Shown in pieces: positions 8,978 through 17,082 of a stretch of 64,000 bases of DNA. The translations under genes were made by a program, and so were the position numbers. This DNA is from Psilocybe cubensis. Lineage: Eukaryota. The DNA is taken from NCBI GenBank assembly GCA_017499595.2, contig CM039006.1, positions 1,550,001 through 1,614,000 on the forward strand, written 5' to 3'. The notes under the pieces are model-generated. The model ran no database searches, was not told the DNA's origin, and worked only from the letters and a program-made list of their open reading frames with translations. How positions within the stretch are numbered: position 1 is the stretch's first letter; every line of letters begins with the position of its first letter.

Positions 8978-11312
8978 ATGAGCGACAGGAAACGTGCGTT
9001 CGAGGGCAGCGCTGGCGATGGTCTCGCCGCAAAGAAACTGAAAAGGTACGTTTATTGTTTACGTCTATGATATGTGACTGATGTCCTGGCTCTAGCGATG
9101 TGAGTACCACCCTTTGTTGCTGAAAGGTAAATGCCCTTTGCATTCCTAACATCGTTGCTCCAACCCTCTTTTTCCTGCCCAGAACACCAGCAATGGTTCC
9201 AGCGCCGCCAAACCACCCGCTGCAGTGCGTGAATCTCTTATCTTCACCAATGGCCATCGTAGAATCTCACAGGAAGCACTAGGCATCAGCGATGGACCTC
9301 ATCGCTCAAAAGCGCGCTGAAATAGCTGCCAAACTCGCAGCCATGAACAAGAAGAACGTTTTGCCTTCAGGAACAACGTCCTTGTCCTCTTCTACTACCG
9401 CACGGGCCTTACCGGGTCTCGCAGCGCCCGTGCCCAAGGTGCCCATTGTTCCGGCGTCGCTGCCATCCAAGGTTGTGTACGCAGGAACCCCTTCGCCCAG
9501 CCTCTCCAGCGGGCCTACCCCCGCGTCTGGCTCTGGGGCACCCACACCCGCCATATCTGATGATCTCCTGCGCAAAGTCGCAGAAGCTAAACGACGTGTT
9601 GCAGATGCGCAGACGAAACTCGCAATCAAAGATAACCCGTACATGGTGTGCTCTATTCCACTGGCCCATAACGTCTCTAACTTTTTTTATTAGACCCTCG
9701 CGCAGTCCGCGAAGCGCAGCAGCAAATCGAGCACACCGCAAATCGAGCCGACACAGCAAGGCGCCGGGCTGAAAATGGCCGCGCACCCTCTGCTTCTAGA
9801 CACAACGCCCGTGCTGCCGCAGTCCAAAAAAGACAGATACAAGCCCATGCAGCCCAAATTTGCATCAATCAAAGCGAATGTGCGGAACCAGCCGTCGCCC
9901 TCTCCAGCTTCGATTGTCCCAAGTGTCGTACCGAGCCCTGCAGCTGCTGCAGGGGCGAATCCGTACATGGCCGGCGGGGTGGGTGTGGCGGGGGCCGCGG
10001 GTAGCGGGGGGAAGGAGGTGGGGATGTTCGAGGGTGCGCCAAGGGAGCGGCAGGGGCGTAAGTTCCATTTTAATCCCAAGGGCAAATACGTGGCGCTGGG
10101 GAACCAGATGAGACAGGAGAATCAGCTCGAGGCGCTTAAGCAGCGTATTGCCGAAAGTGCACGCAAGGCGGGGTTGGATGGGGATATGGGCATCGAGAAG
10201 ACTATCAAGGTGTGCATTGGCTTTTTTGTGTTGTTTATGTGTGAGGCTGAATGTGTATGTAGAGGGCTCCGCCTCCTGATTCAGAGTGGTGGGATGCAGC
10301 GCTGCTGCCGAGCAAGTCGTACAATGACATTGACACGTTTGGGCTCAACAAACTCAACATCCGCACGCCGGACTCACCTGTGACGATATATATCCAGCAT
10401 CCTATCCCCATCCCTGCGCCGAACGAGAAGAACAAGATTGAGCTCAAACCGATGATGCTTACCAAGAAGGAACAGAAGAAGATGAGGAAGTTGAGGAGGA
10501 AACAGGAGTTGCAGGATAAGCGGGATAGAATCCGTATGGGCCTCTTGCCACCCGATCCTCCAAAAGGTATTTTATTCCAACTACCATAAATGCTCTGATC
10601 TAACAATTTCATAGTACGCCTCGCCAATCTCATGAAAGTCCTCACATCAGACGCAATCCAAGACCCTACACGCGTCGAAGCGCGCGTACGCCGTGAAGTT
10701 GCGATGCGCAAACACACACACGAAAAGACCAACGCAGAGCGCAAACTTACCCCAGACCAACGACGCGCCAAGCTCGAGACCAAAAAAGCGGACGAGGACA
10801 GACGCGGGATAACAGGGCTTGTATTCAAAGTGCTCACGCTCACCGACCCGGCACATCAGTTCAAAGTGCGGAAGAACGCTGAGCAGTTGAATCTGACGGG
10901 TGTGTGTGTGTTTGGGCCGAGTTTCAGTGTGGTTTATGTAGAGGGTGCGGGCAAGTATATCAGGAATTATAAGCGGTTGATGATGCAGCGCATCAAGTGG
11001 ACCGAGGCGGCAAGGCCAAGGGGCGGTGAGGAGGAGGTTGAGCTGGAAAATCCAGAGTCGGAGGCCGAAGATACAGGAGAGACACCGAAAGTGAAAGCGC
11101 CAGAGTCGAGTAGTGGCGACGCGGCGAAAAACCTTGAAGACAACAAGTGCTATCTGATCTGGGAAGGCGCATTGCGTGACCGCGAATTTAGCAATTTCAA
11201 GGCGCGCAGCTGTCCCACGGACCGTGATGCGCGCGAGATGCTCGGTGATAGGATGAAAGGGTATTGGGATGTTGCGAAGAATTGGAAGCCTGAGGATGAG
11301 GAGATTTTCTAG
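8978..11312 (+). CDS. PRP3: U4/U6 snRNP splicing factor Prp3
   Basis: IQHPIPIPAP, LTKKEQKKMR..RR, GLLPPDPPK, VRLANLMKVLTSDAIQDPTRVEARVRREV..R...HE..N.ERKLT, HQFKVRKNAEQLNLTG and YKRLMMQRIKW are Prp3 motifs. Exons join in frame from ATG 8978. Confidence 0.95.
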
Positions 11313-11527: not shown

Positions 11528-14440
11528 TTATCGAAGATTCTTCTTGTGGCTGATGGCATCATTTCGATTGGAGGATGGTTCTGAGCAAAGCCTTGGGGTG
11601 ATCTGGTTTTGACCGTCCATGTCGCTCGCGTGTCCAGTGAGTGAGATGGAGATAAAATCTGTGCGTATTTGATGTCAGTGATTTCACAGAATAACGTCGA
11701 TCAGAAAGTGCTTTTTAACCTGCTAGTTGACCGCCAAATTCAAGGGCTACTCCTTTGACTAAAAGGTCTCCCAGTACATAGGGCTTGTCCGAGGGAACCT
11801 CGAACTCGGCGCGCATGTACTAGAACATTAATCAGAACGATCCAGGTAAGAAAAGAAGAAGCTTCAGTTACAGTGCCCTCGCGGCCACGAGTCCACTTCC
11901 ACCATTTGCTTGGGTCATCACCGTCGGGAGCCTCTATTTGACCCCAGCTAATGCTACACACCGCAGTGTCAAGATATTCCTAACCGACACTGATGGAGAC
12001 CGTCGTACCTGTCTATGTATAACCCAACAGGGTTCTTGAGAGTGACCATCGCGCCAGACCGCGCAAACGTATTCACTTCTGCACCGATCTAGGTATGAGC
12101 AAAATAAGCGCCCAATGCGTCAGTGTACTGTGTAAAAGAAGTTCAATGACTGACATGGGGATCGGAATTCCGGTTGGGGTTTCCATAACCACTACAACGA
12201 ATTAGCTCATCTGCATCGGTGATAGGGGTACCATCTAATCGCTTGCGGAGCACAGTTGCCCGGGCCCCATCAGCAAAAGTGCTCGGATCCCCAAATGCCT
12301 TGACAAGGCATTTGGAGGCGTCCAAAGGCCCCAATGCCCGAAAGGCATTGTGCGGTTCGTAACGAGAGACTCCGAAGACTGAAAGGCTTCGAATTATTTA
12401 TTCCAAGCAAATGATTTAGGTAGTACTAAATATAGCCAAATCATTTGGTTAAAATTTGAGTGTCCGTAACATTTAGGCAACATTTGGGAGTCCCAAAAAC
12501 ATTTGGCAAACATTTGCCAGTGTTTAAATGTTTTACACAGTTCACATGGTTCATTATTTAGTGGATCCCTCAGATTATCATAGCAAGTAAAAAGAACTTG
12601 TTGCATTAAGAAAACTTATACTACAACATGACTCCAAAAGGTACAGAGAAGCGAGAAAGTGGTTAAATAACAAAATGATGCTGAGACGATGTCATCAATA
12701 GATGGTACCCATGAATTATAGGAGCTACTTTGGTCGCATAATGTAAGCAAGGTGTGTGTGCAGAAGTGCGCATATACTCACCTAAAAGTTTGGGAACTAG
12801 TGAATGATTATATACCAAGCCGGATATCCAGTAGATCTAAGGCAGAAGGAGAACGGTCTACGGAAAGGCAGATACATGGTCAGTTGAGGATGATCTAATC
12901 AGAAAGGAAGTGGCAGAATTACCTGTGAGTTAGATTCAGCTATGATATACGAAGACTTAGAGTTGAAAAGTCCAAGCCCAAGTCCCACCAAGCGTCGCCG
13001 GAGTAGTGAACATGAGAGTATGTGGAAAGAAAGAAACGGGGGTTGAAAGAGATTATTATGCACAAACAAACAAATATTTGATCTCCGATTCACTCCGATT
13101 CACGCTGATCGCATTGTGACTTCGTTGACAGTCGAGAAATTGTACAGACCGGGTGACCAACTGTACAGAATTCTAATTAGAACTAATGTGGCTGTATAGC
13201 CAGTAAATTTTGGTGTGGATGAATTATTTCATCAGCATTTGAAAGTCCTGTAAACATTTCTCATAACCGAAGTGTAAAACCAAATGTTTTGTGACCTCTT
13301 TTAATTTTGTTAAATGATTCCTTCAAGGTTGCACAGTGTACAAATTTTTTTTTGTAAATTGTAGTTACTAGAAATTATTTGGTGCTTGTTTTGTGATTCA
13401 AAAATGTTTGTGGGGCCTCCAAATGACCACCAAATGATTTGAGTGTTCCCAAATGTTGCCCAAATGTTTTGCGTGACATTACTGTGTCACGTAAAACATT
13501 GGCATGCCTTATAAGGCTCCCAAGGCATTTGGGGGTCTGGTCACTTTTGCTGATGCCCCAAGTCCACTTCCGCACCCAGTGTATTCGCGTCTTGAATCCT
13601 GCAAATAGGTTCTCCTTTAATTACGATGATTTCAAATAAACGAGTAGTGGTTTTTCACTGACAAATGCATGATGGATCCGGTATTGGTGTTGTTGTTCCA
13701 TTTGTTGCGAGGGTTGTATACTCCTTGTTGGTCGAAGAGATCTGCCTTCTTGATATCAAATCCGGGATTGAGAGTCTGATAAAGCTCCACCAGCGTATCT
13801 GGTTGATATTTCCCCAAGAACTTGTAGTACTGTTAAAGTCGACGAGAGGTATTCAATATCGTTGGATGAACTGAAATAGCTATGCTTCCTACCTCTGGGC
13901 CTTCGTTGCAGAATACGATTCTGAGCATTTTCCCTTTGTCATCCCTCTTGATGGACCTGGAAACCATCGATTTTGCAGCGTGATTGGTGAGGCCGGTAAA
14001 AGGAAAACATTAACATACCATTCGCAATATTCGTCCTGAACATCTCTGGCCGCGTCGGCAACCTTCCACCTCTTGTGGTCAGCCGGGTTGGCGATCTTAA
14101 CCTGAAGGGGAAACCTTGAGAATAAATCCAGAAGCTTTTAAACAAATCTGTTCCAACTGACCTGCTTGGGAAACGCGATCCAAGTAATCTTCGCGTCATT
14201 CTGGGGATCCTTTTCCATGACCTTGGTAGCATCGTAGAACTGGGGCTCCAAAGTAGGCGTCACACGATCAGTGAGCATGAATGAAGATATTTGTTGGCTC
14301 CTGTTAATTGGGCGGAAGTCAAACATTAGCGCTTAGCCTCGACATTGAGGTCGAAGTTTGATGAAGTCATACCATAATTTCTTGTTCTCCTCTGTGAGGT
14401 CATCAACGAATCCCGGTGGGTCGTGATACTTCAAAGACAT
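11528..14440 (-). pseudogene. Uncharacterised ~300-aa protein ('gene A', QDEYCEW / RNSDPHIG motifs), 10 exons, interrupted by a TIR element
   Basis: Manual splicing gives MSLKYHDPPGFVDDL...QFYDATK...ITWIAFPKQV...RWKVADAARDVQDEYCEWSIKRD...IVFCNEGPEYYKFL...YNPRNKWN...MHLIQDANTLGAEVDLG[insertion]ARATVLR...LIRCSGYGNPNRNSDPHIGAEVNTFAR...NPVGLYID...APDGDDPSKWWKWTRG...YMRAEFEVP...FGGQLADFISISLTG...KKNLR*. All nine introns are GT-AG and I found no lesion other than the insertion. Confidence 0.85.
12268..13555. mobile_element. Non-autonomous TIR DNA transposon (1,288 bp), CMC/CACTA-like architecture
   Basis: Left end CATCAGCAAAAGTGctcggatCCCCAAATGCCTTG; right end reverse-complement CATCAGCAAAAGTGaccagacCCCCAAATGCCTTG. 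Many subterminal CAAATG/CATTTG repeats in both arms. Removing the element plus 2 C's restores the V-D-L-G-A-R-A-T-V frame of gene A (2-bp TSD CC). No transposase ORF. Confidence 0.88.
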
Positions 14441-14823
14441 CGTATTTGGTGGATAGTTTTTGAAACTAGTTGAGTCTCTTTTTAAGGCTTTTAGGGCCTT
14501 AAACTCCTATGATTATGATTGGCGTTCTAATAAACGGACTGAGACTTGAAAATGTTGAATTTCCCTGGTAGAATCTAGCTGCCCACTAGGCTACCCTAAT
14601 AACAGTCCGAGACTTGCAAATATTAAATTGTCCTGGTAGAAAATGTCTACGGACATTGCTGAACTATGACGTCGTTGCTACGATGTTTATTTTATAATCA
14701 GTTTTGTCGGGCAGTCGTTGCAAAATTTACTCTTCTTTTCGTTCAATTGACAAGTTTTTAAAAACTTGGAACTACCTTATCTGACTCTCGTCTACTTGTA
14801 TTCACACTTGCTGGTTGAAACGT
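14441..14823. promoter_or_regulatory. 383-bp divergent promoter between genes A and B with a ~46-bp imperfect direct repeat
   Basis: ATGs at 14440 (minus) and 14824 (plus). Repeat copies: ctaataaacggactgagacttgaaaatgttgaatttccctggtagaa (14527-14573) and ctaataacagtccgagacttgcaaatattaaattgtcctggtagaa (14596-14641). Confidence 0.6.
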
Positions 14824-17082
14824 ATGGCCTCCTCCGAGCCTATACTGTCCTCCATTGCAGGGATTGACCCATCACCTCGCTATCTATCCCCTAAAGAGGT
14901 CGCTGAACTTACGGACTGGTTTGGCCAATGGCTAGCAAAGACTCCTATATCTAGTAGGCAGCTCACTCTTCGAAGTCTCCTCAAGGAGGTCCTCCCTGCG
15001 GACAGTTATTCAATCTTTGCTGTTGCTGATGGCATACCTATCGTCTATGACCATGCCAATCCTGACAACCCTCTCAATTCTGTTTCTCGTCATCTGCGCT
15101 TCATTATCATTGCTCTTCCAGACAAGGCTCTCCAAGAAACATTTAAGCTCAAGGAGGCTATTCTACGTCGGACGCTGTGTATTGTTGGGAGCTCTAGTCC
15201 TGATTCAAAGTCGAAATTTCTCCAGTGCGCAAGCTGGGATCCGAAAGGATTAAATCAGAAACACGGATTCGGCCTCATGCACTTTTACGAACGCTTAGGG
15301 CCGGATTGGATCTATGTTGGCAATAGTCTGAACGCGGTAAGTTGCAAACCTTACTCCTCTTTTCTCTTGTTTGACAATCTCTTAATGTCGTTCCCCCAAG
15401 TTCAATACCCTCTCAATCAACCGAGGTCCATTCGATGGGTGAGTAACTGGAGAACCTTTTTGCTCATATGCACGCAGCTTATGCGATGTTATAGACATGT
15501 GGGCGGTGGTTTAATTATGAAGGTAGGACAAAAGTTCTTCGCCTAAACATCCGATAACTAATCTCATTTCCTTGCAGGAACTCACGAGCCCATGGACTCA
15601 CTGGTTTGACACCAACCGCGACGATTTTATAAGCTCCCTGGGCTCCACCAAAGGTCATCCATCGAAATGTGACCCCAACAATGCTCTCAACGACGTGTTA
15701 TTCAGTGGACCCAATGGGCCTCCTCTTTCTCTCGTTGTATGTTTACTTAAGAGAGTCTCCGTAGAGTCTTCCTGATATTTTGTCTCCAGCGACGGGCAGA
15801 AGACTTAGAACCTATTGTCGAGTTGTCAGTCTCAAAGTGGTATGATGCCAGATTCGGTATGGGATCGTCGTCGTAAACCAGTCGTTATGATGTTTCTGAT
15901 TGCTGCGTCCAATTAGCGCATGACTTTTTAGACCCAGATGATCTCAAGCCTCTTCCAAAGACCACCGCTGTCAGAGATTGGGTTGGTCACATTTTACTCA
16001 GTCGCAGTATGAATATTGCTACCAGTCCAACGTCCAACGCCGAGGTTAAACAACAGGCTAATATCAACGGGATACCTGCGACGCTTTTCTTTAACTTGAA
16101 TGCTATAGAACGTCTGCTTCCTGATGCGGGTCCTTCGAAGGTGGGCAATCTAGTTGTTTTAAAGCGCGGTACATTTACCGGAGCCATCACAGGCATATAC
16201 CGTTGATAATGCAGTTTATGTTCAAGCTGTCGAGTCGCTGGGGTTAAGTTTGTATTACGATGATTTTTCAACTGATCCCCCGACACAGAGCCTTGCAGTT
16301 AAGGGATCAGAAGGACCCTTCGCTTTCCCAATCATCGAACCTGGCTTGGAAGATTATCAAGGTATCAGAACATTGGTTAACAAATCTAGCCTCGCAACTC
16401 TACTCCCACAAAAGGCCATCACAGCCATGCTGATGGTTGATTTTTAGTGCGTCAGACTGCCTGGATACTTTCGTCCATTGTGAGCCAATCCTAACAAGTA
16501 AACAGCAATCCCATCTACTCTGCTCGCCGCGAAGGCCTGATGCAGTACGTGCCCCATAACGCGTCCCTCAAGGAAGACGGGAAGACGTACGATGCATATG
16601 ATCAGTTCCTCGCCAACCTGAAAGCATCACCGGCGTCGAAAGACCCTAAGTCCGCCGAGTTCGAGCTCCTCCAACTTCTTGACACTCCGGATGAGTCCTA
16701 CGTCGAAATTTTCACCAAACGAGTCAATGCGTACCTCGAAAAAGTTGCGGAGCGGATGAACAGTGAAGCGAATATCAAGGTTTCAGCAGTGCAAGAATAT
16801 ATGACGCTCGCAGACGGTCGGAGGAGGTTGTATCGAGGTCGAGAGAACCAAAAAGAGTCAGCTGGGCTGAATGAATTCTTGCTCACTTTACCTATAATGG
16901 ATCAAGCCCTACCGCTCATTCGCATGATGGAAGATGGGACGGTTACAGACATGGATACTGCGGAGATTGCGTTTTTCAGCAAGAAGAATCAGGAGAAAAT
17001 ACATGCTTTGGATATGTGTTACGCCAGTGCCCCTGGATTGGGAGGTTGTCCAGCCATGATGGCACAGAGACATAGTCCTTAA
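14824..17082 (+). CDS. Uncharacterised ~600-aa protein ('gene B', GPFDGHVGGGLIMKEL..PW..W motif), 8 exons, intact
   Basis: Spliced product: MASSEPIL...FLQCASWD...MHFYERLGPDWIYVGNSLNA|FNTLSINRGPFDG|HVGGGLIMK|ELTSPWTHWFD...RRAEDLEPIVELSVSKWYDARF...ILLSRSMNIATS...PATLFFN...FAFPIIEPGLEDY...MLMVDFY|NPIYSARREGLMQYVP...RRR...GGCPAMMAQRHSP*. All junctions are GT-AG and in frame. Confidence 0.85.

Follow-up and report, generated by a model that had tools for sequence, protein, structure and literature searches.

The stretch of DNA analysed here, hereafter the window, comprises 64,000 nucleotides of contig CM039006.1 of the basidiomycete Psilocybe cubensis (assembly GCA_017499595.2, positions 1,550,001 to 1,614,000 of the forward strand; all coordinates below are those of the window). 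It contains two multi-exon genes, here called A and B, which lie head to head and which an initial annotation, made from the letters only, had put forward as a candidate two-protein system. Relatives of A and B turned out to be neighbours in bacteria and fungi, and we conclude that the two proteins are without a known fold or a characterised family and that the two-gene module is undescribed. Gene A (JR316_0009928) occupies 11528–14440 on the minus strand, from its ATG at 14440 to its stop at 11528, and corresponds to public protein P0001 of 362 amino acids. Gene B (JR316_0009929) occupies 14824–17082 on the plus strand, from its ATG at 14824 to its stop at 17082, and corresponds to public protein P0004 of 619 amino acids. 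One exon of each gene matched its public protein at 98–100% identity, and exon coordinates were obtained by spliced mapping of P0001 and P0004 onto the window. Judging from these coordinates, the 383-bp spacer between the divergent start codons (14441–14823) is presumably a shared promoter region. On the far side of A lies the last exon of PRP3 (10599–11312, plus strand; Prp3_C E 4.7e-44, PRP3 E 3.1e-17), and beyond B the first part of the gene for mitochondrial ribosomal protein L16 (17539–17973, plus strand; Ribosomal_L16 E 3.4e-16); coordinates and flanks agree with the head-to-head, multi-exon pair first described. An open frame of 111 amino acids between B and the L16 gene (17167–17502) has no Pfam match, and may be an L16 5′ leader, an upstream L16 exon, or nothing.

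Gene B has eight exons (14824–15336, 15401–15438, 15495–15522, 15578–15736, 15790–15856, 15917–16140, 16193–16446, and 16506–17082), separated by seven introns of 52–64 nucleotides, and carries no family label. Gene A, labelled PF26676, is annotated with 11 exons (14440–14373, 14300–14162, 14101–14019, 13956–13893, 13829–13663, 13598–13568, 12298–12155, 12088–12009, 11953–11872, 11819–11720, and 11658–11528, all on the minus strand) and ten introns. The longest of these (1269 bp) is no real intron but spans a transposon that the initial annotation overlooked; once it is removed, the counts of nine introns in A and seven in B given there are right. The ancestral sixth exon of A consists of 13598–13556 joined to 12265–12155.

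The transposon (12268–13555, 1288 bp) is a non-autonomous DNA element that sits within a coding exon of A. It has terminal inverted repeats of 35 nucleotides that are 89% complementary, sub-terminal repeats of the type CAAATG/CATTTG, no internal open reading frame (ORF) longer than 81 amino acids, and a guanine-plus-cytosine content of 39.5% compared with 46.1% for the window, in which it occurs as a single copy. The insertion site can be read from the A homologues, which carry an unbroken NTLGAE-VDLGARATV: the window codes VDLG and ARATV on opposite sides of the element, and in the annotated protein 11 residues from the element end (AFGDPSTFADG) replace VDLG. A target duplication of 2–3 bp is ambiguous, the element sitting in a run of C. 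In three sequencing runs from one study with the same species label (X2, X3, and X4), position 12265 is followed directly by 13556 in a contig, so that 1290 bases drop out and the frame is restored, and the depth over the transposon is about 13–28 times that of single-copy sequence. Because of these empty-site contigs and the raised depth, we take the insertion to be a polymorphism of a multi-copy family. The A protein of the windowed strain is at best altered by it. With A interrupted here and its exon uninterrupted in three runs, the A-B pair is therefore dispensable.

A fourth run, X1, which is RNA by a guessed label only and whose contigs give no expression level, bears on splicing. Its contigs skip gene A introns 11659–11719, 11820–11871, and 11954–12008 exactly at GT..AG (the 5′ half of A is uncovered), and likewise the first four introns of gene B; because of these exact joints we conclude that both genes give spliced transcripts. 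One X1 contig differs from B exon 4 (window 15576–15736) at 19 of 161 bases and carries a variant of exon 3, with 25 other letters between the joints, which points to expression, in that sample, of either a divergent allele or another B-like gene. Another X1 contig, of 1677 nucleotides and with a depth of 454, ends in the right arm of the transposon and continues into other sequence; the transposon family seems to be transcribed.

At E ≤ 0.001 we found 610 relatives of A and 393 representative clusters of B relatives. The A relatives, about 45% identical, come from many bacteria, from the alga Klebsormidium, and among fungi from Agaricomycetes and Pezizomycetes. All the motifs quoted for A and B in the initial annotation are present in P0001 and P0004, and in alignments of 56 A and 58 B sequences they fall mostly on invariant or near-invariant columns. 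A is a protein of about 370 amino acids with many invariant Trp, Tyr, Asp, Glu, Arg, Asn, and His residues (43 invariant columns in the 56 sequences). The Cys of its motif QDEYCEW varies, being L or F in several members. The model of A in P. cyanescens (P0011) contains a 21-residue insert resembling an unspliced intron, and A of Klebsormidium (P0059) is extended at the N-terminus by about 100 residues resembling a transit peptide.

The earlier remark that neither protein has a nameable domain held up in every collection searched. The precomputed Pfam label PF26676.1 stands on P0001 and on all 120 relatives among the matches listed, and the source names of A relatives are all "hypothetical protein", except for "COBW/P47K family protein" on P0024. 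Literature searches with PF26676 and five locus tags found no paper, and one on VioB and ferritin-like proteins turned up nothing of use. Neither A nor B matched the local Pfam (a copy without the PF26676 model) or NCBIfam, a Pfam search with ten exon pieces gave nothing above the cut-off, and the PDB sequences contained no relative of A or B, whether single proteins or profiles were used. Confident AlphaFold2 models were obtained for both, with a predicted local distance difference test score (pLDDT) of 91.3 and a predicted template modelling score (pTM) of 0.89 for A, and 91.1 and 0.91, respectively, for B. Foldseek found no match at E ≤ 0.001 for either model in the PDB, nor for the B model in BFVD. 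In a VIA search the best hit of B, whose 619-residue model was searched whole rather than by domain, was cytochrome P460 (Z 3.7, 108 residues, root-mean-square deviation 3.7), and that of A was a solute-binding protein (Z 3.2, 107 residues, root-mean-square deviation 7.0); both Z values lie below the level usual for unrelated models. In the ESM Atlas, B led to unnamed bacterial clusters only, and an A homologue gave no usable match. The N-termini and the predicted globular models are consistent with the view that A and B lack a signal peptide and a transmembrane helix.

The partnership of A and B is seen most clearly in bacteria. Scanning genomes with one bacterial A gave 80 loci from eight phyla, many of them from related Streptomyces. 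In 78 of the 80, A has a B relative next to it on the same strand, directly upstream in 77 and just downstream in locus L074, and the two loci without B are contigs of 1.2 and 1.6 kb. The gap between the B stop and the A start has a median of 17.5 nucleotides in the ORF calls. The bacterial arrangement is a B-then-A operon, which is sometimes a single fused chain. Among the best 150 matches of B, nine proteins are at least 700 amino acids long, of which eight also contain A, in the order B-A or A-B, and the ninth joins B to a tyrosinase domain; a bacterial metagenome-assembled genome (L029) also carries a B-A fusion. No third conserved gene occurs in more than seven of the 80 loci, by a crude clustering of 827 ORFs in which antisense shadow ORFs of high-GC loci were kept.

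The two genes also keep company in other fungi. Adjacent locus tags of A and B are found in P. cyanescens and Marasmius tenuissimus, and A and B lie on contigs of equal size, which we take to be one contig in each case, in Collybia nuda, Rhodocollybia, and Sphaerosporella. A/B fusions are recorded in Arthrobotrys, Myotisia, and Geoglossum. A 1047-residue B-A fusion (P0209) is recorded for the arbuscular mycorrhizal fungus Funneliformis geosporum, but its A part is 52% identical to a bacterial A, and an endobacterium or contamination may be its source. Adjacency in 78 of 80 bacterial loci and in other fungi, together with the single-chain fusions, upholds the initial proposal of a two-component module, and the patchy distribution in bacteria and ascomycetes that it mentioned is correct as well. 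The pair is co-located elsewhere, neither member falls in a characterised family, and the genes are not ubiquitous in fungi. On the evidence of gene order, fusions, and the trees described below, A and B are obligate partners that form a true two-component module.

Within bacteria the pair is thinly spread and mobile. A occurs in 7 of 151 Streptomyces species genomes and on 38 plasmid records, 23 of them predicted to be conjugative, and in none of 50,697 phage records. Fungi with B also include Aspergillus, Penicillium, Chaetomium, Dactylonectria, Kalaharituber, and Funneliformis. We built unrooted trees of both proteins, disregarding in the A tree the row of locus L076, an A-PLD fusion that was mistrimmed and had a branch length of 10. 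The 18 fungal rows of the A tree form one clade (support of 99 in the Shimodaira–Hasegawa-like approximate likelihood ratio test, SH-aLRT), as do the 10 fungal rows of the B tree (SH-aLRT 100), and bacterial subclades recur between the two trees. Fungi nested among bacteria were not seen in either tree, both being unrooted. The patchy distribution, with the pair rare in Streptomyces, on plasmids, and in fungi, and the single fungal clade make a horizontal origin of the pair, in either direction, plausible. The A-B pair is an ancient, accessory, mobile module of bacterial type, with a single origin in Dikarya, where it has been kept as neighbouring genes. One plasmid (L083) belongs to Mycetohabitans endofungorum, an endosymbiont of fungi, and carries an operon of A and a DyP peroxidase gene beside an integrase, a GH108 lysozyme, and a LodA/GoxA oxidase; such an endosymbiont is one conceivable contact route between the bacterial and fungal gene pools.

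A second, more distant branch of A relatives has a different partner. These sister-branch proteins, which include plasmid copies, keep all the A motifs, and on plasmids of Bacillus thuringiensis, Mycetohabitans endofungorum, Ralstonia, Acaryochloris, and Sinorhizobium meliloti A lies directly upstream, by a few bases, of a gene for a D-type DyP haem peroxidase, whose identity follows from PDB matches at E 7.5e-66, 1.7e-54, and 4.6e-27. Scanning metagenomes with these proteins yielded a further 80 loci. DyP lies directly downstream of A on the same strand in 59 of them, B directly upstream of A in 12, and three of the 59 DyP loci have the order A, DyP, B. Neither gene was found in nine loci, seven of which have less than 300 nucleotides of flank on the needed side. 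Other oxidative enzymes recur near relatives of the pair. An A-like gene of Paracoccus has a tyrosinase gene close upstream. The 502-residue protein encoded downstream gave no hhalign match to the B profile and has no PDB relative. Neonectria has a protein joining B to tyrosinase, and proteins joining a ferritin-like part to B and A also exist. Operons of relatives of the pair also contain galactose-oxidase-like and GMC oxidase genes, and LodA-type genes are occasional neighbours only. We considered whether A and B might be a LodA/GoxA-type quinoprotein oxidase and its flavoprotein partner, and rejected this, neither protein having a Pfam or NCBIfam match, be it to LodA_N or to an FAD-binding domain.

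In a minority of bacterial loci the module is joined by proteases, nucleases, and domains known from conflict systems. S8 peptidases are neighbours of, or fused to, the pair in L045, L046, L052, L055, L059, L076, and L029, and in Microvirga. A trypsin-like peptidase, alone or fused to Endonuclease I, lies beside it in L044, L056, L062, and L005. In L007 the A chain continues into trypsin, EEP, and Endonuclease_NS domains and the adjoining gene encodes EAD1-trypsin, and A is fused to PLD in L076 and Microvirga, with flanking S8 genes. Further, an NB-ARC gene lies upstream of A-DyP in Acaryochloris, and the DyP of Sinorhizobium meliloti is fused to leucine-rich repeats (LRR). With local hidden Markov models, S8 or trypsin ORFs were found in 15 of the 78 B-A loci, where about 1.4 and 1.7 ORFs, respectively, would be expected from the frequency in five host genomes (61 S8 and 77 Trypsin_2 matches in 43.1 Mb), a comparison in which thresholds differ and loci are not independent; in the DyP-type loci, S8 ORFs occur in 5 of 80 versus about 0.6 expected. 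By eye, the N-termini of these proteases have no obvious hydrophobic signal peptide. Caspase-family proteins account for three, and radical-SAM proteins for two, of 96 neighbours scanned. The Bradyrhizobium B-A operon (L046, contig G002:C47) sits in a region rich in proteases, with two S8 and three Trypsin_2 matches in about 55 kb and one S8 gene directly downstream of A. In one metagenome sequence (L158:2-5143) a stop-free frame of about 1700 amino acids with an S8 match runs through the A match, and may be an S8-A fusion.

From these associations we give roughly even chances to the reading that A and B form an accessory, mobile, oxidative two-protein unit. A would be its constant hub, probably carrying the active or reactive site, and would need an oxidising partner enzyme: B in the mushroom branch, a D-type DyP in the sister branch, occasionally together with B, and in one case perhaps the neighbouring tyrosinase. 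It is this alternative pairing of A with DyP, tyrosinase, or B that makes the pair most likely oxidative, and A being co-operonic with D-type DyPs argues that the hub belongs with peroxidase chemistry. The predicted reaction would be an O2- or peroxide-dependent oxidation, acting either on an aromatic small molecule or on A's own aromatic residues, which could yield a protein-derived cofactor or a cross-link. In bacteria the unit is repeatedly linked to putatively cytoplasmic S8 or trypsin-like proteases, to nucleases and PLD, and to EAD1, NB-ARC, or LRR proteins, and these recurring links lead us to see in it an accessory module for antagonism or stress rather than housekeeping metabolism. 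The initial annotation had called the module possibly redox-dependent or defensive. The redox suggestion gains indirect support from the DyP and tyrosinase partners of A relatives, and the defensive one, equally indirectly, from the protease, nuclease, EAD1, NB-ARC, and LRR associations.

Several observations weigh against an oxidative conflict unit. B is not simply DyP's substitute, since B and DyP co-occur in three loci. Nor does B look like a DyP: hhalign against the B profile gave probabilities of 0.2% for a DyP partner and 0.45% for the Ralstonia DyP, the B profile has no DyP match among PDB sequences, and the B model, searched whole, has no fold match to DyP (Foldseek against the PDB at E ≤ 0.001; best VIA Z 3.7). 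On the side of conflict, proteases or nucleases accompany the pair in only about a fifth of bacterial loci, 63 of 78 being without such a companion, and the locus counts are not independent, many loci coming from related Streptomyces. PADLOC-DB 2.0.0 assigned no family to two bacterial A, two bacterial B, P0001, or P0004, and PADLOC found little else among the 96 scanned neighbours, which do not resemble a classic defence island. At the P. cubensis locus itself, flanked by PRP3 and L16, no protease, nuclease, or peroxidase adjoins the pair. The identity of about 45% between fungal and bacterial A is above what is usual for immune genes, and the fungal A/B fusions may be merged gene models.

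A rival reading is that the pair is a plain catabolic or secondary-metabolic enzyme of soil organisms, which would oxidise lignin or humus aromatics or make a pigment, would play no part in conflict, and would have proteases and nucleases nearby by coincidence. DyP, tyrosinase, galactose-oxidase-like, GMC, amine-oxidase, and LodA genes all adjoin A or B relatives, the organisms that carry them live as soil saprotrophs or in association with roots, and A is strongly conserved, as its 43 invariant columns attest. Such an enzyme, however, gives little reason for A to be fused to trypsin, two nucleases, or PLD, or to have EAD1-trypsin and NB-ARC neighbours, and the DyP-LRR fusion is hard to explain; moreover, no transporter or regulator is conserved beside the pair, the next family reaching at most seven loci, and the pair is rare within a genus (the 7 of 151 Streptomyces genomes). 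We consider a purely catabolic role possible but doubtful. Another view is that A-B is a non-redox sensor or signal core of a bacterial conflict system serving immunity or cell death, with proteases, nucleases, PLD, and DyP as effectors; DyP would then say nothing about the chemistry of A. Variable effector-type domains are indeed fused or operonic to a constant core, and the combination of trypsin, Endonuclease_NS, S8, and EAD1 is the pattern of "System 3" in Kaur et al., 2020 (PMC7159879). Yet a single partner, DyP, fills 59 of the 80 sister-branch loci in place of a varied effector set, the 63 B-A loci mentioned above have no effector, A and B show no NTPase, repeat, or nucleotide-cyclase-like feature, and a search of that paper and of its 2021 sequel found no mention of peroxidases. 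A non-redox core of this kind seems to us rather improbable.

Two further explanations start from single features of the data. The recurrence of S8 peptidases, with the two radical-SAM proteins among the 96 scanned neighbours, could mean that the pair processes a ribosomal peptide (RiPP) and that the S8 protease is the leader peptidase; but conservation of any small ORF beside the pair stops at a single bacterial family, the fusions to nucleases are out of keeping with it, and the fungal locus has no candidate precursor, so that we rate this as very improbable. That B is an endogenised viral capsid gene and A an unrelated neighbour is hardly credible: only a UniRef label, "Major capsid protein", given to the homologue P0009 of Collybia nuda, speaks for it, whereas the B model, searched whole, has no match at E ≤ 0.001 in the PDB or BFVD, no B relative was confirmed in viral contigs with the one pattern used, A is missing from all 50,697 phage records, and B is the operon partner of A in eight bacterial phyla.

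An oxidative A-B unit has its closest counterpart in the D-type DyP operons, in which A relatives are co-operonic with DyP in 59 of 80 metagenome loci and in five plasmid lineages. The difference is that the mushroom pair has B, which showed no sequence or profile likeness to DyP and, with its model searched whole, no fold likeness. A full-text literature search on DyP gene context listed no paper describing an A-type partner. A second counterpart is found among prokaryotic conflict systems with EAD adaptors, namely the "System 3" of Kaur, Burroughs, Iyer, and Aravind (2020, PMC7159879), which combines trypsin and a NucA endonuclease and may also include S8 and EAD1. Its parts are fused to A or encoded in the next gene in the bacterial loci L007, L056, L062, L005, and L076, but they are absent from most B-A loci and from the fungal locus, and the paper's account of this system names no A- or B-like component. 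The P. cubensis pair is not itself a "System 3" by that description: its flanks are PRP3 and L16, and no trypsin-like peptidase or NucA (Endonuclease_NS) adjoins it.

A looser likeness is to protein-derived quinone cofactors. MauG with methylamine dehydrogenase, and QHNDH with the subtilisin-like QhpE, are cases in which an oxidising or haem enzyme, sometimes with an S8 protease, acts on a partner rich in conserved aromatic residues. By analogy, a similar chemistry would explain how A can pair with oxidants as unrelated as B, DyP, and tyrosinase. These systems differ from the pair in having no homology to A or B, and the Cys of QDEYCEW is not invariant. Extending the oxidative reading further, A might be the hub of an oxidative immune or cell-death weapon common to bacteria and fungi, in which a protease gates A and its oxidant (B, DyP, or tyrosinase) to give a toxic product or cross-link, comparable to the phenoloxidase cascade of arthropods; on this view B, with its new fold, would represent a further class of oxidase or peroxidase, and the pair that mushrooms retained from bacteria would serve them as a dispensable locus for self-defence or incompatibility. 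We offer this as speculation and think it unlikely in its entirety.

The A-B partnership is conserved across a wide range: mushrooms, truffles, and moulds share it with bacteria of at least eight phyla, where it is often found on conjugative plasmids. The pairing of A with DyP provides a testable handle on a large family of "hypothetical proteins" (610 A relatives and 393 B clusters), and DyPs, whose natural roles are poorly understood, would gain a conserved partner. If the link to protease, nuclease, STAND, LRR, and EAD proteins is functional, oxidative chemistry would join the repertoire of microbial conflict systems, and the pair would be one more bacterial module kept by fungi. For P. cubensis, the natural transposon allele of gene A offers a ready loss-of-function comparison.

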